From PVC group bacterium (lineage in GTDB: Bacteria; Omnitrophota; Gorgyraeia; B26-G9), in assembly GCA_024231215.1 (NCBI GenBank), contig JAAEQR010000072.1, forward strand, positions 641,210 through 705,209: a stretch of 64,000 nucleotides of DNA. Reading direction: 5' to 3'. Positions 2-53,868 of this stretch are shown here, in pieces (positions within the stretch are counted from its first letter, which is position 1; each line of letters opens with the position of its first letter). The notes beneath the pieces were generated by a model. The model was not told where the DNA came from, made no database searches, and saw only the letters and a program-made list of their open reading frames with translations. A program made the position numbers and the translations under genes.

Positions 2-223
2 AAAAAAATACTTTTTTTTCTTTTTGCTTTGCCGATTGCCTTGGCGTCAAATATCGTGCGGATTATGATGTTGATTTTCGTGTTTTATGTTTACGGATCA
101 GAAATAGCAATGGGTTGGTTTCATGATTTCTCGGGGATGCTGGTTTTTATTGTAGCATTCATGGGATTGGTATTATTGAGAAAGTTGTTTTTATTATGTC
201 CGGAAAAAAAATTGATAACTTAA
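2..223 (+). CDS. exosortase (XrtA/EpsH-like), C-terminal fragment; the 5' end lies outside the window
   Basis: The reading frame is open from the window edge. It encodes hydrophobic TM helices with an 'ASNIVRI' motif that resembles the conserved Asn/Arg motif of exosortases. EpsI follows immediately and PEP-CTERM cargo genes lie downstream. Confidence 0.45.
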   Translation, partial: KKILFFLFALPIALASNIVRIMMLIFVFYVYGSEIAMGWFHDFSGMLVFIVAFMGLVLLRKLFLLCPEKKLIT

Positions 224-819
224 CAATAAGTGTTCTTGTGCTTTTTGTGTTTGTTTTATTGACGATGCGTATTGTTTCGTCGCGGGAAGAGTTTGCCTTA
301 GAAGTTGAAAAGCCTTCAATCCCGGCAGAGCTTGCGGATTGGAAATTATTAGGTGAGGTTGTAATTCCCGAAGATATCCTAAAAATATTGGGTACAAAAG
401 CCGCGACTTTGGGAGAATATAGAAATGCTGCGGGAGAAAAGATAGACCTATACATCTTAAAGAGTTCAGGCCGTCGTTCTACAATACATTCTCCGGAGTA
501 TTGTTATCTTGGTTCGGGTAAGAATGAACTCTTAAAAAGGGGCAAATACGATGTTTCACTTGATTCGGGAAAAACATTAAAAGTAAACTATTTGTTCATC
601 CAAATTGAAGGTGGATTTCAAACGGTTGTATATTTTTATACGGCAAATCAATTGAAAACACACAACTATTATAAACAGCAATTATTTTTCATTTTGAAAC
701 GGCTAAAGAATGAGCCAGTGGAAGGGTGCTTGATGAGAGTTGCAAAATTCTCTAGAAATAATGATTTGGAGCCATCTTTAGAATCATTGCAACCTGTTGT
801 TAGGGAGTTGGTTAGGTGA
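196..819 (+). CDS. EpsI-family exosortase-associated protein
   Basis: Single N-terminal TM helix plus an 'HSPEYCYLGSG' motif that matches the EpsI HxPExC signature. It overlaps the exosortase 3' end. Confidence 0.55.
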   Translation: MSGKKIDNLTISVLVLFVFVLLTMRIVSSREEFALEVEKPSIPAELADWKLLGEVVIPEDILKILGTKAATLGEYRNAAGEKIDLYILKSSGRRSTIHSPEYCYLGSGKNELLKRGKYDVSLDSGKTLKVNYLFIQIEGGFQTVVYFYTANQLKTHNYYKQQLFFILKRLKNEPVEGCLMRVAKFSRNNDLEPSLESLQPVVRELVR

Positions 820-865
820 TTATTTTTCTGTATTTTTAAAAAGTTTTAAAAAGTTTTCAGCAATC

Positions 866-894
866 TTGACAGGTTGAACTTTATGTGGTATACT
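866..894 (+). promoter_or_regulatory. sigma-70-like promoter: TTGACA, 17-nt spacer, TATACT, with an extended TGTGG element
   Basis: TTGACA at 866-871 and TATACT at 889-894, with an exact 17-nt spacer, upstream of the 937 CDS. Confidence 0.45.
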
Positions 895-936
895 TTTGAT
901 AGTTTTTATTATTCAGAAACACAAAATTAATTTTGG

Positions 937-2046
937 GTGTCGATTATGAAAAGAAAAGCTTATCCTATAAATCGAATAGCGCAAGTACTTATCGCAATAA
1001 TAGGCATGTTGTCTGTTAGTGTTACAGGCCTATTTGCGGCAAGTTGTGATATTGGAGCATTTGTTGGTAATGATGATCATCGTGCTCCTTATGATTATGA
1101 AGTGCGTGATTTTGAGAATATAACCGGACATCATTTAGATTCAGTCCAGTTGTTCTGGGCATGGAACGATGGTAGTTTTCCGGGTGCTGATTTGGATACC
1201 GGAGTTCGTTATCATGATGGTTATAACACGCAGACCAGTCTTCAGCTTACTTGGGAGCCTTGGTCCAGAGCTGGTGGAACCGACGCTTCTTATACTCTTC
1301 CAAATATAATCAATGGTACATACGATTCTTATATTACACAATTCGCAAACGATTGCTATAGCTGGCAGGCACCGATTAGATTACGTTTTGCGCATGAAAT
1401 GATTACTCCTTCTGGAACTGACAATTGGTATCCATGGCAGAATAACCCCACAGAATATACTCAAGCCTGGCGTCATATTTACAATATTTTTGAACAGGAA
1501 TCCGCATCACGCGCGGTAGACAATGTGGAATTTGTTTGGGCGCCGTTAGGAGCGATTGGTAACACGACAACGTTACAGCAGTATTATCCGGGACAGGAAT
1601 ATGTTGATTGGATTGGTATGGGAGGACATAATGCCGGAGAAGATGGTGAACCGGGATGGCCTTACTGGCAGAATTTTGATGATTTGTTTGCTAATGTTTA
1701 TAATGTTGTAACTCAGCATCCGGAAATCTTTGGTGATAAAGAGATGATGATTGCTGAATTTTCATCTGCAGATGGCGATAGTCCTAGCGATAAAGCGACT
1801 TGGATTGCACAAGCTTTTTCAAGAATAAAAAATAACTATACAAAAATTAGCGCGTTTTACTGGTTCAATACCGTGAAAGAACATGACTGGCGGATTAATT
1901 CTACTCCGGAAAGTCTTGCGGCATTCCAGTATTTTATGGAAGATGAATATTTCACATCCCATGTTGTACCTGAACCAAGCGGAATAATTCTATTCGGAGC
2001 GGGATTGACATATTTGTTAGGAATTTGTAAAAGAATTAATGTGTAG
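937..2046 (+). CDS. PEP-CTERM-anchored secreted glycoside hydrolase, GH26-like (putative beta-mannanase)
   Basis: Signal peptide present. 'RLRFAHEM...WYPWQ' resembles the GH26 'RP.HE.NG.WFWWG' catalytic-acid region. The C-terminal 'VPEPSGIILFGAGL...KR' is a PEP-CTERM sorting signal. Confidence 0.55.
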   Translation: MSIMKRKAYPINRIAQVLIAIIGMLSVSVTGLFAASCDIGAFVGNDDHRAPYDYEVRDFENITGHHLDSVQLFWAWNDGSFPGADLDTGVRYHDGYNTQTSLQLTWEPWSRAGGTDASYTLPNIINGTYDSYITQFANDCYSWQAPIRLRFAHEMITPSGTDNWYPWQNNPTEYTQAWRHIYNIFEQESASRAVDNVEFVWAPLGAIGNTTTLQQYYPGQEYVDWIGMGGHNAGEDGEPGWPYWQNFDDLFANVYNVVTQHPEIFGDKEMMIAEFSSADGDSPSDKATWIAQAFSRIKNNYTKISAFYWFNTVKEHDWRINSTPESLAAFQYFMEDEYFTSHVVPEPSGIILFGAGLTYLLGICKRINV

Positions 2047-2064
2047 GAAGGGAGGGAATACGAA

Positions 2065-2658
2065 TTGACTAAGAAGCTTTTATTAATAATTTGCGCAGTA
2101 AGTTTGCTGGTTGTTCCAGCGGTAGTTAGCGCAGCGGATGATTTCCAGGGGTTTGGAGTATATCTTGACCGAGGTAGTCGTGCTAATCATTATTCTCCGT
2201 CAGGATGGATGGGTGATTATGGTGACCTTAAGATTACCCAAGGACATAAAGACAATCCATATTCCGGGAAGACTTGTATTAAAATTACTTATACCGCAGA
2301 AGGAAAACAGGGTGCGAACTGGGCAGGGATGTACTGGCAGTGGCCGCCAAATAACTGGGGTGAAAGAAACGGTGGTTTTGATCTGACTGGTGCGACAAAA
2401 CTGACTTTCTGGGCTCGCGGAGAAACCGGTGACGAACATATAGTGGAATTTAAGGTCGGCGGATTAACCGGCACATATTCTGACACTGATTCTAATAGTA
2501 TTGGGCCGGTAGAATTAACTTCTGAATGGACACAATACGAGATTGATTTAACTGACCTTGATTTATCATACATTAGTGGTGGATTTGCCTGGGTAACTAA
2601 TTCTATGGCAAACCAAGAAGGATGTGTTTTCTATCTTGATGATATTAGATACGAATAA
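2065..2658 (+). CDS. secreted protein with a beta-sandwich/CBM-like region and no PEP-CTERM
   Basis: Signal peptide 'LLVVPAVVSAADD', aromatic/Gly-rich composition, and a good ORF in an operon with PEP-CTERM genes. Confidence 0.45.
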   Translation: MTKKLLLIICAVSLLVVPAVVSAADDFQGFGVYLDRGSRANHYSPSGWMGDYGDLKITQGHKDNPYSGKTCIKITYTAEGKQGANWAGMYWQWPPNNWGERNGGFDLTGATKLTFWARGETGDEHIVEFKVGGLTGTYSDTDSNSIGPVELTSEWTQYEIDLTDLDLSYISGGFAWVTNSMANQEGCVFYLDDIRYE

Positions 2659-2730
2659 AAAGAGAGAGAGGTGATCAGGATGAATAATTTATTAAGTATT
2701 ACTAACGAAAAAATGAAAGGAGGTGAAATA

Positions 2731-3360
2731 ATGAAAAAGGTATTTGCAATTATAGCTATGATTACTTTGTTAAGCATTCCTGCGATAGCACAAGCAAACT
2801 TATTGGTCAACGGAAGTTTTGAGCAGGCACCAGGACCTAGCGATCCTCGTTTCCCAGGTTGGGATAGTTCATGGGGTGAAGCATATAATAACTGGTTGAG
2901 AACAGCAACTGCTCCTTATGCTACTGATGGAAGTTGGTATGCAAAGTGTTGGTGGGATGGCGGTATTGTACAGTCTGTAAGTGTCACCGGAGACCAAACC
3001 TATGAATTGCTCTTCGATTGGTGGTGTGCAGATAATGCTGTTGGAGAAGGATGGGCTACTGAAGCAAAGATTGAGTATTTCAATGCTTCAGACATATCTG
3101 TTGGCACTGAGAGTTTTGCCCTTACTAGTTTAGCTGATGGTAATTGGCATGAAGATATTGGCGGAACTACAGTTGCTCCAACCCCAGCGGTAACAGCGGA
3201 ACTCACTTTTTTTACATGGGCGGATGCTACTACCGAACCAGGTAACCCAACAGGTTGGGATAACGTAAGATTTGACGTAATTCCAGAGCCGAGCAGTCTT
3301 TTGCTTTTAGGTACTGGTATTATGGGTATGCTTTCCGCGGTAAGAAAAAAGAAAGCATAA
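2731..3360 (+). CDS. PEP-CTERM domain secreted protein (CBM-like)
   Basis: RBS AAAGGAGG lies upstream of the ATG at 2731. The protein has a signal peptide and ends in 'IPEPSSLLLLGTGIMGMLSAVRKKKA', a PEP-CTERM motif with a TM helix and basic tail. Confidence 0.6.
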   Translation: MKKVFAIIAMITLLSIPAIAQANLLVNGSFEQAPGPSDPRFPGWDSSWGEAYNNWLRTATAPYATDGSWYAKCWWDGGIVQSVSVTGDQTYELLFDWWCADNAVGEGWATEAKIEYFNASDISVGTESFALTSLADGNWHEDIGGTTVAPTPAVTAELTFFTWADATTEPGNPTGWDNVRFDVIPEPSSLLLLGTGIMGMLSAVRKKKA

Positions 3361-3390
3361 ATAAATAATACGCTATTTTATAGGTAAGCT

Positions 3391-3428
3391 AAAAGAGCAG
3401 GAGTTTTACTCCTGCTCTTTTGTTTTCT
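3391..3428 (+). terminator. rho-independent terminator
   Basis: Perfect 14-bp hairpin AAAAGAGCAGGAGT / ACTCCTGCTCTTTT with loop TTT, followed by a T-run. Confidence 0.7.
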
Positions 3429-3437
3429 GTAGAGCCA

Positions 3438-3466
3438 TTGTATGTGCATTTTTCTTATGGTATAAT
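3438..3466 (+). promoter_or_regulatory. sigma-70 promoter with extended -10 (TTGTAT, 17-nt spacer, TGgTATAAT)
   Basis: TTGTAT at 3438-3443 and TATAAT at 3461-3466, preceded by TGG, upstream of the 3517 CDS. Confidence 0.5.
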
Positions 3467-3516
3467 TATATTCAGCTATAAGATATTTAAGATATTATTT
3501 TAATTAGGAAGTAGTA

Positions 3517-6102
3517 ATGAAAAAGATAAAACGCTCCGGGATTGCCTTGATCATGGCTGTCGGGATACTTGCTATCCTGGCTATGGTTGCTATCGGTTTT
3601 TCTGTGTTTGCTCGTATGGAATTAAAATCTTCTACAGGTTATGAAAATCAATTCCAGGCAGATTGTATTGCAGAGGCCGGGATCTCTCAGACTATCTGGG
3701 ATTTGAAATACGGAGCAAAGGGAGTAAAAGCAGAACTCTATGATACGCCTTTAGATGATTGGTATTATGAAGGTGATGGAGGTTCTAACCCTGTAGCCGA
3801 TGATCTGAAAACTGCAGCAACACCTTCCTTTGGCGTTCCGCAAGCTTTTGGCGGTGGTACTTATAAACTTAAAGTTATTGATTGTGCAAGTCTAGTAAAT
3901 ATCAATGTGCCTTTCCCTGGGAGTAATCCAAATGTTAGGAATGGCTTGCAGGCTGTCTTAGGTGGATTATTAAGTAGTTCTTCAAAAGCAACTGATATAT
4001 TAAACTATCGTCAAACTCTCCCTAATAACAAGTTTATTTCCAAAGAAGAGATGAAATTGGTTAGTACTGTTAATGATAGTGATTATAATAATATTAAAGA
4101 TTATATAACCTTGTATGGGGGTGTTGATACTGGTGATTATACCTTGGGTCAGACGTTAGGGGCTCAGCCTGGGCATACAGAGATGTGTTTTATAAATGTT
4201 AATACTGCCCCAGCAGTTGTATTGGATACGGTTTTAGATCCGATTATGTCAGGCAGTACAGCTACGCTGATTAGCCATATTATTAGTCGGAGGAATAGTA
4301 ATCCTTTTGATGGGTCTAATACAGGGACTGATAATTTCTCTTCAGCTTTAGGTGAGTGGCAGTGGTTTTTACAGAATGAGGAGGCTAACGGTGATATTAG
4401 TGTAGGAGACTTGGCAAGTTTACTTGATGAAACCAACCCCAATCGTTATGAGCCAGGTGTAGCTGTTACTCCTAGTACTTATTTTTCTTTTGATTCTGGG
4501 GGGTATTATGAAATAGAGGCGATTGGGGATTATAACGGAGCAAGTAAACGCATAACCAAAGCAGTGCATATCTATAATAAAATATATCAGACAAGTAAAG
4601 AAGATTTTGATACTAAAAATGATCCTCTGCGCACTACACGTGTAACCTGGAAAGATTCCTGTCCGGTTACCTATGGTTGTTTAAAAAAACATATCTATGA
4701 TCCTACTGCAACAGATGTGGAATTAATGCTGGGTTCTATAAAATTAGGATTTTGGGATGATTTTGATGAAGACTATGATCATAGCAATCCTAATGATAAA
4801 GGGGATTGGGTTACTTTGCAGGAGAGTTTTAATATTGCAGTGGATCCAAATGATTCAAATAATTGGATTCTTAGAACTTGGCCTATCGGAGGACCGGGTA
4901 GTTTTGTGCAGGGCAGAAATTATTTTCCGAATGTAGAACTTGATAGGGATAAATGGAGGGTTAATGGTTTTTCGATTTGTGTTCGTTTAATTGACGAATT
5001 AGATGATGTTAAGGCACCTGCTGGATGGAGAACGGATCTTCCTTGGCCGAATATTCCTAATGGTGGAAATTGGGGAAATGATGCAGATACTAGTACTTGC
5101 CCTGATCCATCGAGAATTAAGTCTGGAAAATACCATGAGCGTTTTATGAATGTAGCGCATTTGAAATTTGGAGTGAATCCTATGGATTGTGCTGGAGTAT
5201 ATTGTTCTTTCCCGCAGGAATACGATATACTTCCGGATGGTACAGATAATGTATTGTATAGTCAATGGGTTGATTATGATGGTACTGGTTATATATATTT
5301 TGCGCCTGCTCCTGACCCAGCAAATCCAGCTATAGATGTTACTCTTAAACCTTTTAGTGTTTTGCGTGAGCCACAGTTAATGGTTATATTTGATAGTTGG
5401 TGGTGGCCGGATTCCTCTCCCTCAGGCTTCCGTGGATCTGAAGAAGGGACTGAATGTAAGTCTATGGTATCTTATGGTTACCAGCATGATAAAACTTTTT
5501 GTTTATCAACCAAGGGTCCAATGAATATTGATATAACTGTTTATTTCCCTGGCAATTCTATGTCTGCTAAAAACCCGGATATACCTAATGACTGGAATGG
5601 AGGTTTTATGGCATATCCATCGTATAATGATTGGGAAAATAGAATTATTACAATGTCGGGGATTAACAGTCTCTTTGATATGGATAATGTTCGAATTATT
5701 CCCGAACAAGGAGTATATACTGCAGGGAATTTTGATCCTACTAATACTGGTGGGACTTTAAATATGATTGAATGGGGAACGTTGTCTTCTGGGGTTAGCT
5801 TGCCTCAAAATGCTAATAAGGATAAAGAAAGAGTGTTTTTGCATACTAACTTTTTCGGATTAGATACTTATGCTTTGCCAGGACCAGGTGATGTAGAACC
5901 CGTATCGGCAGGGGTGTATTCTCCTGCAGGAGGTTCTTTAGGCGCTGGGACTTATCCTGTAATACGGTATCGAATTTATATGTTTTCAGATGATGATCGG
6001 GTGGTTGCTAGTAGTTATAAGTTTGAAAATACTCCGGTTGTAGAGGATGTAACAATTACCTACATGCCGCAGACAAAAATATTAGCTATGAATAAGAATT
6101 AA
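3517..6102 (+). CDS. giant GspK/PilX-like minor pseudopilin (861 aa) with a large extracellular domain
   Basis: N-terminus 'KRSGIALIMAVGILAILAMVAIGF...ARMELKSS...QADCIAEAG' matches the GspK N-terminal TM plus 'QA..AE.G' pattern. It lacks the pilin Glu5. The remaining ~800 aa are Asn/Gly/Trp/Tyr-rich and look like a surface domain. Confidence 0.5.
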   Translation: MKKIKRSGIALIMAVGILAILAMVAIGFSVFARMELKSSTGYENQFQADCIAEAGISQTIWDLKYGAKGVKAELYDTPLDDWYYEGDGGSNPVADDLKTAATPSFGVPQAFGGGTYKLKVIDCASLVNINVPFPGSNPNVRNGLQAVLGGLLSSSSKATDILNYRQTLPNNKFISKEEMKLVSTVNDSDYNNIKDYITLYGGVDTGDYTLGQTLGAQPGHTEMCFINVNTAPAVVLDTVLDPIMSGSTATLISHIISRRNSNPFDGSNTGTDNFSSALGEWQWFLQNEEANGDISVGDLASLLDETNPNRYEPGVAVTPSTYFSFDSGGYYEIEAIGDYNGASKRITKAVHIYNKIYQTSKEDFDTKNDPLRTTRVTWKDSCPVTYGCLKKHIYDPTATDVELMLGSIKLGFWDDFDEDYDHSNPNDKGDWVTLQESFNIAVDPNDSNNWILRTWPIGGPGSFVQGRNYFPNVELDRDKWRVNGFSICVRLIDELDDVKAPAGWRTDLPWPNIPNGGNWGNDADTSTCPDPSRIKSGKYHERFMNVAHLKFGVNPMDCAGVYCSFPQEYDILPDGTDNVLYSQWVDYDGTGYIYFAPAPDPANPAIDVTLKPFSVLREPQLMVIFDSWWWPDSSPSGFRGSEEGTECKSMVSYGYQHDKTFCLSTKGPMNIDITVYFPGNSMSAKNPDIPNDWNGGFMAYPSYNDWENRIITMSGINSLFDMDNVRIIPEQGVYTAGNFDPTNTGGTLNMIEWGTLSSGVSLPQNANKDKERVFLHTNFFGLDTYALPGPGDVEPVSAGVYSPAGGSLGAGTYPVIRYRIYMFSDDDRVVASSYKFENTPVVEDVTITYMPQTKILAMNKN

Positions 6103-6121
6103 AGAAAAGGAGAGAGGAGAT

Positions 6122-6427
6122 ATGTCAGAGAAGAGAAAATATAAAAGGTTAAGTCAGGTTGTGCCGGTGCGTCATCGCAAACAAAAAGAAGCCAATGTGA
6201 AATCCAGTCAGGCTTTGGATATCTCTACCGGAGGTATGCGTATTGCCTCTGAGGCGCAGCTGGAGATTGGCTCAGAATTAAATATCGAAATGCATATTAA
6301 TAAATCAGCCCAGCCTTTTTATGCTAAAGGAGAAGTAGTTTGGCTTAAGGAAAAAGAGAATAAAACTTTTGATGTTGGGATAAAGTTTGTGCGTGTTGTG
6401 CAAAAAACTGAAATAGAAGGATTTTAA
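6122..6427 (+). CDS. PilZ domain protein (c-di-GMP effector)
   Basis: Canonical 'RKYKR' (RxxxR) and 'DISTGGMRI' (DxSxGG) motifs. Confidence 0.7.
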   Translation: MSEKRKYKRLSQVVPVRHRKQKEANVKSSQALDISTGGMRIASEAQLEIGSELNIEMHINKSAQPFYAKGEVVWLKEKENKTFDVGIKFVRVVQKTEIEGF

Positions 6428-6438
6428 TCTTTCATTAA

Positions 6439-7935
6439 ATGGATTTTAAGAAAAATTTATATAGATTACTGAAGGTTCTCGTTATCGCTTTTTGGCTGGT
6501 GATGATGGGAACCTTATTTGCAAAAAATTTAATCTTCTACAACAGCCTTACCGCGTATCAGCCTTTTCTATCTAAAAATACGCTTCTTTCCGACCAGTGG
6601 ATGGGAATTTACTTTAATGATAACCATGTTGGATTTTCACACACTTCTATTGAGCCTTATAATATCAAAAGTGGCGTTTCAGGATACCGGATCATAAGCC
6701 GTACAAACATGAATTTTTTACTTTTAAGAAAAAGGCAGCGTGTCTGGTTTGACGCGGCGGCAATCGTTGATGAGAATTACCAATTAGTAAACTTTGAATT
6801 CTATCTGCGTTCCGGGATGCATAAGATTAATGTAAAAGGCCTGGTATCAAAGGCAAATGAAATAAACCTGGCTATTGATTCGCAAGGGGTAGTTAGCAGC
6901 CGCAAGATCGTTCTGCCTGAGCAGGAAGGCGTGATCTTGGCTAGTATTATCAGTCCGTTTAATTCGTTCGGCAACTTAAGTGTAGGGGCAAAATATAATT
7001 TAAAAGTATTAAATCCTTTTACCCTTGCACTTGAACCATTAGCTTTAGAAGTTGCCGGTAAGGAGATGCTCGAGCATGAAGGAGAACAGATAGAAGTATT
7101 TATCGTAAAATCCGATTACCGCGGTTTTAAACAGACAGCCTGGGTAAATAAAGAAGGAGAAATTATAAAAGAAGAAACAGCTTTAGGCTGGATTCTTCGA
7201 AAAGAATCGCCGGATATTGCAACGAGGTTATTAGAGACAGCTGATAGATCAGATACGGAATTATTAGAATTTGTATCTTTAACTTCAAATATGAACTTAG
7301 ATAAAAAGGATGCTGTGTATTTAAAACTTGCCTTATCCGGGGTGGGAGATGAATTTCCCCTTGAAAACCAGCGGCAGAGACTTGAATCTAAAGAAGTGCT
7401 GATTATAAATAAAGAATCAATTAAACCAGAGGAAGCTTTAAGTTTACCGATTGATAAGTATAGTGAGTTCCTTAAGGCGACTGATTTTCTCCAGGTAAAT
7501 GACGAAAAGATTCAAAAGATGGCCAAACGGATCTTAAAGAATGAAAATAATAGCTGGCTAGCTGCGAAAAAAATAAATGACTGGGTGTATAAGACGATCC
7601 GAAAAACACCGGTAGTAAGTATTCCTTCAGCTATAGATGTTTTAAATACGCGGGAAGGAGACTGTAATGAACATACCGCTTTATTTACTGCTTTGGCGCG
7701 TGCTGCAGGAATTCCTGCGAAAGTTCATGTCGGACTTGTGTATTTGAAAGGCAGATTTTATTATCATGCCTGGCCCAGTGTGTACGTGGGAAAATGGATA
7801 GATATGGATCCTACGTTTGGCCAGGATATCGCGGATGTTAGTCATATAAAGCTTTTAGAAGGAGATTTGAATAAACAATTGGATATTGTTAAACTGATCG
7901 GTAAGATTGCATTGGAGGTGATTGAATATAGATGA
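6439..7935 (+). CDS. transglutaminase-like cysteine protease domain membrane protein
   Basis: N-terminal TM helix. C-terminal 'GDCNEHTALFTALARAAGIPAKVHVG...YHAWPSV...DMDPT' carries the Cys-His-Asp transglutaminase core. Confidence 0.65.
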   Translation: MDFKKNLYRLLKVLVIAFWLVMMGTLFAKNLIFYNSLTAYQPFLSKNTLLSDQWMGIYFNDNHVGFSHTSIEPYNIKSGVSGYRIISRTNMNFLLLRKRQRVWFDAAAIVDENYQLVNFEFYLRSGMHKINVKGLVSKANEINLAIDSQGVVSSRKIVLPEQEGVILASIISPFNSFGNLSVGAKYNLKVLNPFTLALEPLALEVAGKEMLEHEGEQIEVFIVKSDYRGFKQTAWVNKEGEIIKEETALGWILRKESPDIATRLLETADRSDTELLEFVSLTSNMNLDKKDAVYLKLALSGVGDEFPLENQRQRLESKEVLIINKESIKPEEALSLPIDKYSEFLKATDFLQVNDEKIQKMAKRILKNENNSWLAAKKINDWVYKTIRKTPVVSIPSAIDVLNTREGDCNEHTALFTALARAAGIPAKVHVGLVYLKGRFYYHAWPSVYVGKWIDMDPTFGQDIADVSHIKLLEGDLNKQLDIVKLIGKIALEVIEYR

Positions 7936-8663
7936 TTAAGACGGAGAATTTAAGAAAAGAATTTGGGGATTTAGTGGCTCTTAATGATCTTTCTTTGGAT
8001 ATTGCTGAAGGAGAGTTCTTTGCTTTTTTAGGGCCTAATGCCGCGGGCAAGACAACCACAATAAAGCTATTGATTGGATTGCTTAAGCCGACAAAAGGCA
8101 CGGCTTATGTTTGCGGTTATAATATACAAAAAGATTATGTGGAAGCTAAAAAACATATAAGTTATATTCCAGATTTTCCTTTTTTATATGAAAAGCTTAC
8201 AGCCCGGGAGTTTTTGCATTTTGTCTGTGATTTGTATCCAGAACAGGAGATGAAAAACAGGAAGACTGTAATCGATGATCTTTTATTAAAATTCAACTTG
8301 AATGAACATCAAAATCATTTGATTGAGCATTATTCGCATGGTATGCGGCAGAAGCTGGTGTTTGCCGCGTCTTTGATCCATGATCCGAAGGTGATGATTA
8401 TTGATGAACCAATGGTTGGATTAGATCCGCATTCTACACGTGTAGTGAAAGATATTTTAAAAGAAAAGTCAAAACAGGGTGTGACGATATTTTTATCGAC
8501 TCATACTTTAAGCGTGGCTGAAGAATTGGCTGATCGTATTGGAATAATAGATCACGGCAAGCTGATTGCGATAGGAACCTTAGATGAACTGAGAAAATCC
8601 TCAGGTGAAGGCGGTAGATTAGAAGATGTGTTTTTGCGACTTACCGAGGAGGAAGGTTCGTAA
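7932..8663 (+). CDS. ABC transporter ATP-binding protein
   Basis: Walker A 'GPNAAGKTT', ABC signature 'YSHGMRQKL' and Walker B 'MIIDEP'. Its start overlaps the upstream gene. Confidence 0.85.
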   Translation: MIKTENLRKEFGDLVALNDLSLDIAEGEFFAFLGPNAAGKTTTIKLLIGLLKPTKGTAYVCGYNIQKDYVEAKKHISYIPDFPFLYEKLTAREFLHFVCDLYPEQEMKNRKTVIDDLLLKFNLNEHQNHLIEHYSHGMRQKLVFAASLIHDPKVMIIDEPMVGLDPHSTRVVKDILKEKSKQGVTIFLSTHTLSVAEELADRIGIIDHGKLIAIGTLDELRKSSGEGGRLEDVFLRLTEEEGS

Positions 8664-8670
8664 ATAAATT

Positions 8671-10347
8671 ATGAATGAAATAATTACGATTTTAAATATC
8701 CGGTTTGCAATATTAAAGAATAAATTGCGTAACGCGCATCAGCATTCGCGGCTTAAGATCTTTGTTGTTTGGTTTATGATCATCGGGATTCTAGGCGCTA
8801 CGTTTTATGTGCCGTACAAGGCATTTGTGTTTTTGCAGTCTATGGATCATGTGGGCAATGTGATTATTGAGCGCTTAATGTATTTATTGTTCATGGGGTT
8901 GTTTATGATGCTGGTTTTTTCAAATAGTATAATTTGTTATTCTACAGGCTATCGAGCCAGAGAGACTACCTATTTTTTTACACTTCCGATTAAATATGCC
9001 AATATATTCTTTGTGAAATTTATCGACTCAATAATCTTAAGCTCCTGGGCGTTTTTGTGTTTTTTACTACCGATCATGGCTGCATATGCTCATGTGAAAA
9101 ATCTTGGATTTATGTTTTATCTTACGCTTATTGTGTTTTTTGTGCCGTTTGCCGTGGTGGCTGCGGCAATTGGCAGTATGATCACTATGGCGATTGTCCG
9201 GTTCTTCCCGAGAAAGTTATATGCTATTCTGGGCTGGATTTTAGGTGTAGGGCTTGTTGCAGGGATTATCTGGCTGATTATTATCGGCAAAGGAGCAAAG
9301 ACCGAAGATGAATTTCTATTTGTGTTGACCAATCTAATTCCGCACTTTAGATTTACCCAGTTTGTTTTCGCGCCCAATTACTGGATCAGCGAAGGTATTT
9401 TTAAGGCTATTGCCTATGACTATGAAGGCAGTTTTTATTGGTGGCTTTTGCTTTTAAGTAACGCGTTAATGCTTGGACAGGCTGCGTATTTATGGTCAAA
9501 AAGAATATATTATGATGGCTGGGTAAATACTTCTTTTTCCGGGATAACGAAGAACTATTATGCGGGAAAAGGTATGGCTGATAAAATATGTCGCAGATTA
9601 TCTTGTGTTCCGCTTTGGATGCGTAGTTTAATCGTAAAGGATATAAAAGTTTTTTGCCGGGATCCAGTTCAGTGGTCGCAGTTCACTGTATTCTTTGGGC
9701 TCTTAGCGATCTATTTTGTGAATATTCGCAATTTCGGGTATGCAAATTTAATTCCGTTTTGGAAAAATATTGTTAGTTTTTTAAATCTAACATCCACGAA
9801 TTTAACATTGGCATCATTATCAGTAAGATTTGTCTTCCCTCAGCTAAGTTTAGAAGGGAAGAGTTTCTGGATATTGGGACTGGCTCCGATAAAAAGACAG
9901 AGTTTATTATTTGAAAAATTCTGGTTAAATAGTATTGCCGCATTATGTATAAGCTTGCCTTTGATCACGATTTCCAATTTGATGCTTAATGTTTCTCCAT
10001 TACAGATAATATTATCTATTTTTGTTGTGATATTGATGTGTTTTTCTTTGATTGCGCTATGTGTGGGGCTGGGAGCCTTGTTTCCGAATTTTAAAGAAGA
10101 CAATCCAGCCCAGATTGTTTCCGGCTTTGGCGGAACTTTGGCTTTGGTTTTATGTTTGGTATATATAGCGCTTAATGTTATGGCCCTGGCTATGCCGTTT
10201 CATTTACTGGTAACCGAGCAGATAGGGCAGGGGGCATTTCAGAAACTGCTGTGTATATCCTGCGTATTTGTTTTTATCCTCGGAGCGGTAAGTATTTTCT
10301 TGTCCTTATTTTTCGGCTCTCGAGCCTTGAAAAATCTAGAGATGTGA
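8671..10347 (+). CDS. ABC transporter permease (ABC-2-like, 10-12 TM helices)
   Basis: Highly hydrophobic 558-aa protein starting 8 nt after the ATPase gene. Confidence 0.6.
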   Translation: MNEIITILNIRFAILKNKLRNAHQHSRLKIFVVWFMIIGILGATFYVPYKAFVFLQSMDHVGNVIIERLMYLLFMGLFMMLVFSNSIICYSTGYRARETTYFFTLPIKYANIFFVKFIDSIILSSWAFLCFLLPIMAAYAHVKNLGFMFYLTLIVFFVPFAVVAAAIGSMITMAIVRFFPRKLYAILGWILGVGLVAGIIWLIIIGKGAKTEDEFLFVLTNLIPHFRFTQFVFAPNYWISEGIFKAIAYDYEGSFYWWLLLLSNALMLGQAAYLWSKRIYYDGWVNTSFSGITKNYYAGKGMADKICRRLSCVPLWMRSLIVKDIKVFCRDPVQWSQFTVFFGLLAIYFVNIRNFGYANLIPFWKNIVSFLNLTSTNLTLASLSVRFVFPQLSLEGKSFWILGLAPIKRQSLLFEKFWLNSIAALCISLPLITISNLMLNVSPLQIILSIFVVILMCFSLIALCVGLGALFPNFKEDNPAQIVSGFGGTLALVLCLVYIALNVMALAMPFHLLVTEQIGQGAFQKLLCISCVFVFILGAVSIFLSLFFGSRALKNLEM

Positions 10348-10454: not shown

Positions 10455-11195
10455 ATGAAGCGATTTATATTTATTCTTATAATTTCTGTTTTTGTTAGCG
10501 GGTGCGCGACTTTTTTGAATCCACTTACCGGTAAGAAGGAAACTATCTTGCTGGATACTCCATATGAAGTTGCTTTGGGTGGGCATTTTAGTCGGCAGGT
10601 AGCTGGTCAATATAAAATCGAAGATGGTTTTGAATATAATGACCGGATACAGGTAATTACCCGGAAACTGGTTTCTGTGTGTGATCGCAAAGACTTGGCT
10701 TATCAGGTAAAGGTAATAAAAAATAAACAAATGAATGCCTTTGCCATGCCTGGTGGTTTTATTTATGTTAATACCGGGCTTATGGATAGTGTTGATGATG
10801 ATGAGCTGGCGGGTGTATTAGCGCATGAAATGGGGCATGTTGTAGCCCGGCACGGGGTGAAAAAACTAGCTGCAAACCTGGGAGCCGGAGTTGTAATGAG
10901 TATTGTGTTGCGTTCGGAGGATGATAAGGAGTTACAACAGCTAGTTGCTACTGGTTTTACTTTGGTAACTTTAGGCTATAGTCGTCAGGATGAGTATCAA
11001 GCAGACAAACTGGCGATTAAATATACATATTTGGCGGGGTATAATCCCCGAGGTGTAGTCAGTTTATTTGAAAAACTGAGGAGGGAACATGGTGATATCG
11101 CGGGTTTTGAAATCTGGTCAAGCACTCATCCACCGCTTTCGCAAAGAATCAACCACGCGGAAGAACAGATCAAGCGCTACCAGAGTGGCGGGTAA
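10455..11195 (+). CDS. M48-family zinc metallopeptidase lipoprotein
   Basis: Lipobox 'VSGCAT', 'HEMGHVVARH' (HExxH) and a downstream Glu. Confidence 0.75.
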   Translation: MKRFIFILIISVFVSGCATFLNPLTGKKETILLDTPYEVALGGHFSRQVAGQYKIEDGFEYNDRIQVITRKLVSVCDRKDLAYQVKVIKNKQMNAFAMPGGFIYVNTGLMDSVDDDELAGVLAHEMGHVVARHGVKKLAANLGAGVVMSIVLRSEDDKELQQLVATGFTLVTLGYSRQDEYQADKLAIKYTYLAGYNPRGVVSLFEKLRREHGDIAGFEIWSSTHPPLSQRINHAEEQIKRYQSGG

Positions 11196-11568
11196 TGTCT
11201 CTACCGGAACTACAAGTAATGACAGGAGAAAATTTTTTCGTTTAAGAGCTTTACTCGATGGGAAGTTTAAAACAGAAGATGGTGGTAACGGGTTAATGAG
11301 ACTTACTGATTTTACAAGGGAAGGTGTGCGGGCTTGTTTTAATCGTAAAGTGGAGTTGGGCAAGACAGTTGCGTTCGAAATATGGTTTCCTGGAAAAGTT
11401 GCCACAGCTAATGCCTCGGGGACGGTTGTCTGGCTAAAGCGAAATTCAAAAGCCTGGACCGGAAAATTTGACGCAGGTGTTAAGATAGAGGATATTTCTC
11501 CGGATGACCGGTGGAGAATTCTCGATTATGCTTATCAATATTGGAATCAGGAAAGAAAAAAAGCATGA
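11185..11568 (+). CDS. PilZ domain protein (second copy)
   Basis: 'RRKFFRLR' (RxxxR) and 'TDFTREGVRA' (D.T..G) motifs. The long ORF 11089-11568 overlaps the M48 gene; a GTG at 11185 is the likely start. Its stop overlaps the pyk start (ATGA). Confidence 0.5.
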   Translation: MAGNVSTGTTSNDRRKFFRLRALLDGKFKTEDGGNGLMRLTDFTREGVRACFNRKVELGKTVAFEIWFPGKVATANASGTVVWLKRNSKAWTGKFDAGVKIEDISPDDRWRILDYAYQYWNQERKKA

Positions 11569-39309: not shown

Positions 39310-39777
39310 GTGTTAAAAATGTTTAGGCAGAAAAAAGGTTTTACTCTCGTAGAATTACTTGTGGTAATGGCTGTTTTGGCGATTTTAGCGGGTGGTCTTT
39401 TACCTGCGTTGAGCCGTGCACGTGAACAGGGCCGTAGAACGACTTGTATGAACAATCTAAAACAGATCGGTCTGGCAATATCTATGTATCGTTTGGATAA
39501 TAATGATAGTTTTCCAGCTGATTTGAATGCGCTTTATAATAGTACGACACCAACTGATGGATATATTGATAATCTTGATATTTTTATTTGTCCGAGTACG
39601 GGGGCTGCAACACCAGCCAATCCTGCGGCCGGAGATTATGATTATACAGCTCCTGGTACGAATAATCCAGCATCTACAGTTACCATTGTTGCGGATAAAG
39701 CTGCTAATCATAAAGGTGGTAAAAATACTCTTTATGTAGATGGTCATGTATCATGGGTACCTACAGCTACCCCATGA
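39310..39777 (+). CDS. prepilin-type N-terminal cleavage/methylation domain protein with a C-terminal H-X9-DG motif (DUF1559-like pseudopilin)
   Basis: '[19 protein letters not shown]' class III signal and the C-terminus '[17 protein letters not shown]'. Confidence 0.65.
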
Positions 39778-39892: not shown

Positions 39893-39967
39893 GGCGGCGT
39901 AGCCAAGCGGGAAGGCAGAGGTCTGCAAAACCTTTATTCAGCGGTTCGAATCCGCTCGCCGCCTCCA
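39893..39967 (+). tRNA. tRNA-Cys (GCA)
   Basis: Cloverleaf folded by hand: acceptor GGCGGCG/CGCCGCC, anticodon loop CTGCAAA, T-arm AGCGG-TTCGAAT-CCGCT, CCA encoded. Confidence 0.8.
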
Positions 39968-40045
39968 AAGACTTGAACGACAAGGATTCGAACAACAAAG
40001 TGATTTTTGATATAATAATAGTTTATTGTTAATTGATAAATTTTC

Positions 40046-40129
40046 CGGGCGAGTGGTGGAATGGCATACACGATGGACTTAAAATCCATTGGCTTAACGG
40101 CCGTAAGGGTTCGAATCCCTTCTCGCCCA
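40046..40129 (+). tRNA. tRNA-Leu (TAA), long variable arm
   Basis: Acceptor GGGCGAG/CTCGCCC, anticodon loop CTTAAAA, 16-nt variable arm, T-arm AAGGG-TTCGAAT-CCCTT. Confidence 0.8.
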
Positions 40130-40244
40130 TTTTTAAAAAAGTCTTAAGCTGTAAGTTTTAAGTTTTATGTAAAAACAAAAAGATATTTAATATCAAACAG
40201 AAAAAATCTTACAACTTATAACTTAAAGCTTACAACTGAACTTT

Positions 40245-40321
40245 GGGCGGTTAGCTCAGTTGGTTAGAGCGTTGCGTTGACATCGCAGAGGTCACAGATT
40301 CGAGTTCTGTACCGCCCACCA
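40245..40321 (+). tRNA. tRNA-Val (GAC)
   Basis: Acceptor GGGCGGT/ACCGCCC, D-arm GCTCAGTTGGTTAGAGC, anticodon loop TTGACAT, CCA encoded. Confidence 0.85.
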
Positions 40322-53619: not shown

Positions 53620-53868
53620 ATTTTATAGATATGTAGATAATAATTTTCCCTGCCATGCTCGTGAGCACTTGGTAATTATGAGCCATTAACGCTTAAAAGG
53701 GAACCTAACTTCAGGCTGTCTTAGGGCGGTTTGAGAGGGTGCCCACCTGGATGAAACCGGGTTCAATAATTCTCAGGTGTTTACGGCAGTGAGCGGGGAA
53801 TTTTTTTCCCGCCATGTTGTGTGGCGGATAAATCCCGCCAAGGCGGGATAAAATAAAAGGCAGTTATT

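Follow-up and report, generated by a model that had tools for sequence, protein, structure and literature searches.

The minor pseudopilin GspK (XcpX) caps the pseudopilus of type II secretion. It tops the I-J-K priming complex and, with no further subunit above, can do without the glutamate at position 5 (Glu5). A hallmark of GspK is an inserted alpha-domain containing helix-hairpin-helix (HhH) motifs. Here, we report the analysis of a giant GspK-type protein of 861 amino acids (aa), the window K protein, whose gene lies near the beginning of a 64,000-nucleotide (nt) stretch of DNA (the window) from a PVC group bacterium of the phylum Omnitrophota (assembly GCA_024231215.1, contig JAAEQR010000072.1, positions 641,210 to 705,209 of the forward strand). 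Omnitrophota are uncultured, mostly ultra-small and thought to be attached to hosts or prey. Type IV pili are near-universal in the phylum and constitute the main candidate attachment device; the corresponding clusters, present in nearly all Omnitrophota, were classed as type IVa pilus (T4aP) clusters with a proposed role in host attachment, and the K subunit was not discussed (Seymour et al., PMC10066038). We found no paper mentioning both Omnitrophota and GspK.

Modular pilins, in which, by the definition of Raynaud et al. (2021), a pilin module is joined to a distinct module that is not for filament biogenesis, are widespread (PMC8179133). In Streptococcus sanguinis, the pilin PilC is a tip adhesin that recognises host glycans through its ConA-like lectin module (PMC9934059). 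The concept of a modular tip pilin is therefore established, and the protein identical to the window K protein in NCBI (MCP4649472.1) already carries the name 'general secretion pathway protein GspK [PVC group bacterium]'. The novelty lies in the combination of a GspK module with an apparently private beta module of 500 aa, the phylum-wide use of such a K subunit and a detached arrangement in which K is paired with a PilZ gene. The GspK-type identity of the protein is well supported, and we infer an adhesin or cap function. On balance, we favour the view that it is a K-type, tip-forming modular minor pilin of an Omnitrophota filament that resembles T4aP and the type II secretion system (T2SS), probably a glycan adhesin and coupled to cyclic di-GMP (c-di-GMP).

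The N-terminal part is predicted to adopt the GspK fold

The open reading frame (ORF) is a genuine gene, since 17 full-length homologues (748-872 aa) are conserved with it end to end, at 35-48% identity. All of them keep the large C-terminal extension, and nearly all carry the label Omnitrophota; the restriction of the K family to this phylum is read from the names on database records. The first-pass annotation, which was made from the DNA alone, had proposed a GspK-type minor pseudopilin without Glu5. The N-terminus that it quoted (KRSGIALIMAVGILAILAMVAIGFSVFARMELKSS...QADCIAEAG) is exact, and the 861-aa sequence indeed has Gly8 at position -1 and Met at +5. As predicted from the sequence, prepilin peptidase is expected to cut after Gly8, between KRSG and IALIM, and I9, A10 and L11 are invariant in the alignment of the 17 homologues. 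The NCBIfam model T2SS_GspK (NF037980) aligns with residues 7-57 (E 3.4e-8), and Pfam HHH_3 gives a faint match to residues 154-198. Across the family, Pfam T2SSK was matched by 12 of the 17 members (E <= 0.01, best 9.5e-9) and HHH_3 by 11.

An AlphaFold2 (AF2) model of the whole protein, built on the 17-sequence alignment, had a mean pLDDT of 73 and a pTM of 0.72, with pLDDT mostly between 70 and 95 in residues 1-360. The modelled order of a 59-residue helix, two strands, a helical domain and three strands (residues in Table 1) is the GspK arrangement, a pilin sheet interrupted by an alpha-domain. Whole-protein sequence search against PDB chains gave zero matches, and the first four Foldseek matches in the PDB were all XcpX/GspK (9a1f_T, 6utu_C, 3ci0_K and 5vtm_X; E 7e-8 to 4e-6, probability 1.0, TM (target) 0.51-0.65). 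Structure prediction thus bears out both the pilin-like helix and the GspK topology. Among orthologues, the best-conserved parts are residues 1-80 (helix), 321-360 (last pilin strands), 721-760 and 841-861.

The window K protein shares with GspK/XcpX the Glu5-less class III-type N-terminus, the long alpha1 helix and the sheet split by an HhH domain. It differs in that it is 2.5 times larger, carries a C-terminal beta module of 500 aa that is absent from GspK, is only 12-14% identical to these proteins in structural alignments, and scores below the cutoffs of the curated families; moreover, it is encoded away from G/H/I/J, and the associated machine is T4aP-like (PilT, PilMN). The protein derives from GspK-type minor pseudopilins and would act in the same manner. 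Another very large PVC-group protein with a GspK-like N-terminus is Verru_Chthon cassette protein A (NCBIfam TIGR02600, model length 1296), whose gene accompanies those of prepilin-type proteins. Membership of the window K protein in this family was rejected: only residues 8-59 align (22.6 bits vs a cutoff of 332.3), and the sequence beyond them is unrelated.

A C-terminal beta-rich module apparently private to the K family

The first-pass annotation had described an additional region of ~500 aa, rich in Asn, Gly and Trp and with repeated 'NxxxD/NW' motifs. The region is present, but as a C-terminal extension (residues 361-861) and not as an insert. Its composition is biased, although not merely towards these three residues: W, D, P, N and G account for 3.2, 9.8, 8.0, 7.2 and 8.4% of it, against 1.2, 5.4, 3.5, 4.7 and 6.2% in the other ORFs of the window. 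The repeats did not hold up, as NW occurs twice, NxxxD 7 times where ~3.5 are expected, and self-BLAST of residues 361-861 found no internal repeats.

When modelled alone by AF2 (pLDDT 71.5, pTM 0.79), residues 361-861 form ~25 beta-strands with several long low-confidence loops. No Pfam or NCBIfam family matches them, and a profile of the module was also without match among PDB chains. Against 1.84 billion representative proteins, the same profile gave 150 matches in all, every one of them the C-terminal end of a 650-1040-aa protein or a fragment, and the same GspK-like N-terminus was present in 20 of 20 sampled matches. Because the profile matches only proteins of the same architecture or fragments, the module appears to be a private feature of the K family and not a mobile domain. 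In the model, residues 361-861 correspond to the definition of a modular pilin, being a separate beta-rich module beside the pilin module, though not a promiscuous one. Residues 521-720 are variable and indel-rich among orthologues, with conserved ends on either side. In addition, four of nine scanned relatives have a central PA14 domain that scores above the Pfam cutoff (26-39 bits); in pilins and adhesins, PA14 is recognised as a module that binds carbohydrate (PMC8179133).

Foldseek related the modelled module to VIP36, legume lectin, calreticulin and GH16-like proteins (E ~1e-4, TM ~0.45). These matches include GH16-type beta-glucanases and a porphyranase, and the neighbourhood of the gene is glycan-active, both of which would suit a secreted GH16-like glucanase, or another enzyme, held by a mere hydrophobic signal anchor. 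We consider such an enzyme highly improbable: the N-terminal 360 residues are predicted to fold as GspK and not as a simple anchor, and lectin and pseudo-glucanase matches score as high as enzymes. Moreover, no Pfam glycoside hydrolase family is matched and, by eye, no GH16 ExDxxE motif was noticed in the conserved columns of the 17-homologue alignment, and on these two grounds a GH16-like enzyme was rejected.

The architecture recalls PilC (pilin, Ig-like and ConA-like lectin modules) and PilB (pilin and vWA modules) of S. sanguinis, whose bulky C-terminal modules are likewise expected at the tip; as in PilC, the added module may be a beta-sandwich, with a likeness to ConA-like lectins and glucanases that is weak in the window K protein (PMC9934059, PMC8179133). 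In contrast to both, the pilin module of the window K protein is of the large GspK type and not a short pilin, its extra module, a candidate glycan binder, is about double a lectin domain in size and shows no domain signature at the sequence level, and its organism is a diderm of an uncultured phylum. If our reading is right, the 'modular pilin' idea extends to the GspK class of minor pilins. PilY1/PilC adhesins and large minor pilins of the ComZ/CofB type also place a bulky ligand-binding unit at the tip via the minor-pilin priming complex (PMC8179133, PMC9934059). However, PilY1 is a beta-propeller protein and not a pilin, ComZ has a beta-solenoid inserted in its sheet, and no PilY1, ComZ or CofB-type protein was among the Foldseek fold matches.

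We also noted that a segment (8405..8893) within a 1039-aa K gene of another genome (locus L041) resembles the body of the 229-aa PEP-CTERM protein of the window (27% identity, E 1.5e-8). The same beta-domain would therefore occur in PEP-CTERM surface proteins and in pilus tip subunits.

Distant homologues occupy the K slot of pilus operons

A scan of species-representative genomes yielded 35 loci, which were mapped with tblastn markers together with loci fetched earlier (numbers preceded by L denote these loci). K genes were found in two settings. The first comprises the window and ~20 orthologous loci, where K is apart from the pilus machinery: no pilin or machinery genes were found in the flanks of K, which here does not follow gspG-H-I-J. 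Five of these loci have a solitary m148-like pilin gene at 2-4 kb upstream of K. The second setting (L008, L009, L028-L030, L033, L036, L038 and L042) consists of machinery operons of the form E-(PilT)-E-F-G-m148-m145-J-K-PilMN-Amuc_1100-like-secretin-secretin, with K after a J-like pilin and before a PilM-PilN (PilMN) fusion. A gene placed right after the J-like pilin, as for GspK/XcpX, is a feature of these distant homologues. Their K-slot proteins measure 664-1039 aa, are 23-32% identical to the window K protein and are often encoded in two or three tandem copies. The assembly ATPases of related operons carry c-di-GMP-binding MshEN domains.

The proteins of the two settings were aligned by hhalign over their whole length (698 columns, probability 100, E 4e-99), and the alignment includes the motifs KLGFWDDF and PV(V/L)EDVT(I/V)TY of the C-terminal module. 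Because of this whole-length alignment and of the length of the K-slot proteins, the giant size can be taken as ancestral for the K subunit of Omnitrophota. It is therefore not the peculiarity of one gene that the first-pass annotation had seen in it, such a size being usual for K-slot proteins across the phylum. The occurrence of distant full-length homologues in the K slot adds to motif, predicted fold and family placement in favour of a GspK-type minor pseudopilin. The K tip subunit across Omnitrophota would be a modular protein of 650-1040 aa, with a variable centre, a family-specific head that is probably a beta-sandwich and, in part of the family, PA14 domains, which makes it a concrete candidate for a determinant of host or glycan recognition.

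Tandem K genes are found in L009, L028-L030 and L041 (CAZAEH010000003.1, 737..13108). In the latter, three of them (955, 1039 and 1037 aa) are each followed by one or two genes for proteins of ~355-375 aa, and a gene for a protein of ~365 aa also follows K in L008, L036, L039 and L028. The ~365-aa protein may be a recurring partner of K, or the genes may provide alternative tips. In L040 (DAOVKU010000021.1, 5357..19653), a G-m148-m145-J-K block is followed within a few kb by surface-protein genes, namely two PEP-CTERM genes, a GH26-like PEP-CTERM gene and a copy of the gene for the 197-aa secreted protein of the window (Table 1). This is a second, independent linkage of window-type surface proteins with pilin genes.

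The two settings raise the question of whether the detached K is an extra copy or the only K of its genome. Within the 35-locus scan, whose patterns were narrow, no assembly had both settings. Assembly JAZDHZ01 combines a detached K locus (L016) with a machinery operon on another contig (L046), in the order major pilin (between pgk and tpi)-E-PilT-E-F-PilMN-Amuc_1100-like-x-secretin. In this operon, F and PilMN are a mere 270 bp apart and have no pilin genes between them; the layout of L047 is identical. A PilMN fusion of the window's metagenome-assembled genome (MAG), MCP4650240.1, is encoded on another, 498-kb contig; it was linked to this MAG by accession proximity, being 768 numbers from MCP4649472.1. 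It is 52-54% identical to PilMN of L046 and L047 (54% to L046) and only 31% to PilMN of the operons that contain K. Since the K slot of L046 and L047 is empty and their PilMN proteins are the closest to that of the window MAG, the simplest interpretation is that this lineage has dispersed its G-H-I-J-K block and that the window gene encodes the K subunit of the system. An extra K coexisting with an operon-encoded K was not supported, because no assembly within the narrow patterns of the scan has both and the slot in L046 is empty. In this lineage, nature would thus provide a clear case of minor-pilin genes scattered away from the machinery operon, with K tied to a PilZ c-di-GMP receptor.

In L046 (~2296..2739) and L047 (~2131..2607), the major pilin encoded between phosphoglycerate kinase and triose-phosphate isomerase is of the T2SSG type; its gene is an unusual interruption of a pair of glycolytic genes. 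A second PilMN-PilO pair lies just upstream of it in both loci.

These operons also bear on whether K tips a T2SS pseudopilus, in which case the C-terminal module would contact exoproteins or the secretin and help to expel cargo such as the GH26-like and PEP-CTERM neighbours. The closest solved structures are indeed T2SS GspK/XcpX, the major pilin of the related operons is of the T2SSG type, several of these operons are without PilT (L028-L030, L042), and K adjoins secreted glycan-active and PEP-CTERM proteins both in the window and in L040. However, the machinery operons of the window's own lineage carry a PilT-type ATPase, PilM/N and a PilO-like protein, which are typical of a retractile T4aP, and PA14 and lectin-like modules point to the binding of surface ligands. 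Furthermore, PEP-CTERM proteins are sorted by exosortase and not by the T2SS, and exosortase adjacency is absent at most orthologous loci. We regard a T2SS tip as rather unlikely.

K and PilZ form a conserved gene pair with a promoter of its own

The gene had been proposed to be transcribed from its own extended -10 promoter, with a PilZ gene adjoining downstream, and comparison of orthologues agrees with both points. The motif TGnTATAAT is present upstream of 15 of the 17 orthologues, often ending only 16-25 nt before the ATG. As we estimate that ~170 nt with the same base composition would contain a match by chance with a probability of ~0.01, its conservation appears to be far beyond chance and meaningful. 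In the window, the promoter was omitted by a consensus scan, only three of six positions of its -35 matching, and was read from the sequence. A GC-rich hairpin and T-run equivalent to the terminator of the window is visible upstream of most orthologues. A c-di-GMP or other riboswitch upstream of K was rejected, all Rfam matches being sub-threshold and driven by the terminator hairpin.

The window copy differs from other orthologues in the spacing of 51 nt between the -10 element and the ATG, with AGGAAG in between. In L003, L011, L013, L016, L018, L025 and others, TGnTATAAT ends only 16-25 nt before the start codon, a distance that barely accommodates a Shine-Dalgarno sequence, if at all; the mRNAs of these orthologues may therefore be leaderless or have very short leaders.

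The PilZ gene starts 19 nt past the stop codon of K and is followed by three more genes, with gaps of 11 nt and 7 nt and one overlap. These small gaps and overlaps suggest a single transcript from 3517 to 10347 (K, PilZ, transglutaminase and ABC genes), and the transglutaminase and ABC genes are probably in the same transcript as PilZ. PilZ, which is preceded by its own GGAG-rich ribosome-binding site, lies directly downstream of every orthologue with a readable flank (~104 aa there). The RxxxR motif is kept in 16 of 16 PilZ orthologues and (D/N)xSxxG in 15, the remaining one having Cys for Ser, and the window protein can be taken, by its motifs, as a canonical PilZ and a putative c-di-GMP receptor. 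The transglutaminase and ABC genes follow PilZ in most orthologous loci; as they are reduced to mere fragments in L003, L004 and L014, they lie outside the invariant core.

A small single-domain PilZ tied genetically to a pilus component is also known from the PilZ-FimX-PilB control of type IV pili. The founding PilZ of Pseudomonas aeruginosa is not known to carry the canonical c-di-GMP-binding motifs, whereas the window PilZ keeps them.

The composition of this operon is also what would be expected if K had been exapted as a non-assembled, bitopic inner-membrane or periplasmic glycan-binding protein, working with PilZ, transglutaminase and ABC proteins in c-di-GMP-controlled processing of the envelope or of exopolysaccharide (EPS). 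K is detached from all pilus genes, the PilZ-transglutaminase-ABC operon is tight in most orthologous loci, an exosortase/EPS locus adjoins K at six distinct loci, and the Ala found at position -1 in many orthologues may impair cleavage. On the other hand, the pilin-specific parts (residues 1-80 and 321-360) are the best conserved, and the transglutaminase and ABC genes decayed in L003, L004 and L014 while K-PilZ stayed intact. Moreover, the detached K is probably still needed, because the machinery operon of an orthologue-bearing genome is without a K of its own. Exaptation thus seems quite improbable to us; should K nevertheless stay outside filaments, it would illustrate how a pseudopilin can be exapted for an envelope function.

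Proposed role of the K-PilZ module

Our preferred reading, a tip-forming modular minor pilin, can be put as a sequence of steps. We infer that prepilin peptidase would cut after Gly8 and that the Glu5-less helix and the GspK-like pilin module would seat K atop the I-J-K priming complex. As K is at the apex of this complex and the module is fused to its C-terminus, the 500-residue putative beta-sandwich module would be displayed at the filament tip. There, it would most likely bind glycan, either on the surface of a host or prey cell or in the bacterium's own exopolysaccharide. The minor-pilin block would have been lost from the machinery operon in this lineage, and K would be transcribed with PilZ from its own strong extended -10 promoter. 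As K and PilZ appear to be co-transcribed, the supply of the tip subunit is probably coupled to c-di-GMP signalling. PilZ might link c-di-GMP to the supply or the use of this subunit, perhaps via the MshEN-containing assembly ATPases.

Several observations weigh against this reading. The score of the window K protein for the NCBIfam GspK model NF037980 is 33.4 bits, vs a cutoff of 130, and its match to Pfam T2SSK (PF03934, residues 226-267) is 21.8 bits, below the cutoff of 24.2. About 7 of the 17 orthologues have Ala instead of Gly at position -1, and therefore slower cleavage by prepilin peptidase is expected. The likeness of the C-terminal module to ConA-like lectins and glucanases is weak, with a TM of ~0.45, an rmsd of 9-13 A and long loops of low confidence. 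Residues for sugar binding were not identified in it. No G/H/I/J-type pilin, PilD or ATPase gene adjoins K in the window, and no role in pilus biology is known for the transglutaminase-like protein and the ABC exporter with which it forms a tight operon. Finally, the operon layout of the window genome is deduced from a relative and not seen directly: the search for pilus genes elsewhere in the MAG, which the first-pass annotation had advised, used accession proximity and a related assembly and recovered the PilMN fusion but not the I/J partner subunits.

A bolder version, which we hold to be speculative and on the unlikely side, is that the tip subunit moved out of the operon into a strongly promoted K-PilZ module, in which the hypervariable glycan-binding head sets the host or surface to which these ultra-small and probably host-dependent cells attach, and PilZ licenses priming by c-di-GMP. 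If true, the standalone K-PilZ module would regulate type IV filaments through their tip subunit, a mode of control not described before.

Neighbouring features of the window

The coordinates of all features are listed in Table 1. The neighbours that had been named in the first reading (PilZ, EpsI, two PEP-CTERM proteins and the exosortase tail) are present as claimed.

Table 1. Position of the K gene, its predicted modules, expression signals and neighbouring features in the window
Feature	Coordinates	Strand	Remarks
GspK-type modular minor pseudopilin, giant	3517..6102	+	ATG start, 861 aa, NCBI MCP4649472.1
Class III signal peptide-like leader (residues 1-8) and long N-terminal helix (predicted 7-65)	3517..3711	+	No Glu at +5
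GspK-like module, residues 1-360	3517..4596	+	Pilin beta-sheet (strands 104-122, 330-358) split by helical domain
Inserted alpha-domain with helix-hairpin-helix motifs, residues 138-305	3928..4431	+	Pfam T2SSK, HHH_3, AF2 helices
C-terminal beta-rich module, residues 361-861	4597..6099	+	Apparently family-specific; variable, indel-rich centre ~521-720
Intrinsic terminator hairpin, 15-bp stem and T-run	3390..3422	+	Ends upstream PEP-CTERM gene, separates K gene
Promoter-like site	3438..3466	+	TTGTAT 3438-3443, 17-nt spacer including TG extension, TGGTATAAT 3458-3466
Shine-Dalgarno-like AGGAAG	3506..3511	+	5 nt before ATG
PilZ single-domain protein, 101 aa	6122..6427	+	Pfam 54.8 bits (cutoff 22.5); RKYKR (RxxxR), DISTGG (DxSxxG)
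Transglutaminase-like membrane protein, ABC ATPase, 12-TM ABC_tran_2 permease	6439..10347	+	Pfam; tightly packed after PilZ
197-aa secreted protein	2065..2658	+	Choice-of-anchor-J-like, NCBIfam 23.6 bits, below cutoff 30
Exosortase (C-terminal end)/EpsI/GH26-like PEP-CTERM/PEP-CTERM cluster	2..3360	+	Neighbouring context only
Exosortase tail	2..208	+	
EpsI	196..819	+	
PEP-CTERM proteins	937..2046 and 2671..3360	+	Second, 229 aa
Three tRNA genes	39893..40318	+	Rfam
6S RNA	53644..53803	+	Rfam 75 bits, gathering score 46.4

The K gene does lie beside the exosortase/PEP-CTERM locus in the window, but this locus is not part of the conserved core: among the loci with readable upstream sequence, the exosortase-EpsI-GH26 cluster precedes K at only six distinct loci, the window counted. 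Exosortase as an obligatory partner of K was rejected, most orthologous loci being without it. By contrast, the secreted protein of 197-204 aa is encoded upstream of K in every orthologous locus with a readable flank, whether exosortase is present or not; with 66-75% identity among these loci, its conservation exceeds that of the K gene. In L006 and L017, the gene caller joins this protein and the GH26-like protein as one 568-aa product, and for this reason the 197-aa protein may be a carbohydrate-binding module.

Downstream of the operon, an ORF of 159 aa (11089..11568, + strand) precedes the pyruvate kinase gene; the ORF at the same position in L002 and L006 matches PilZ. If that of the window is also a PilZ protein, the locus may encode two of them within 5 kb.

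Finally, a prepilin-type protein of 155 aa is encoded at 39310..39777 (+ strand; N_methyl 38.7, DUF1559/SBP_bac_10 48 and T2SSG 23 bits). It keeps Glu5 (FTLVELLVV), lies directly upstream of the three tRNA genes and is not linked to the K gene; it is a member of DUF1559, a family of pilin-like proteins that is typical of the PVC group.

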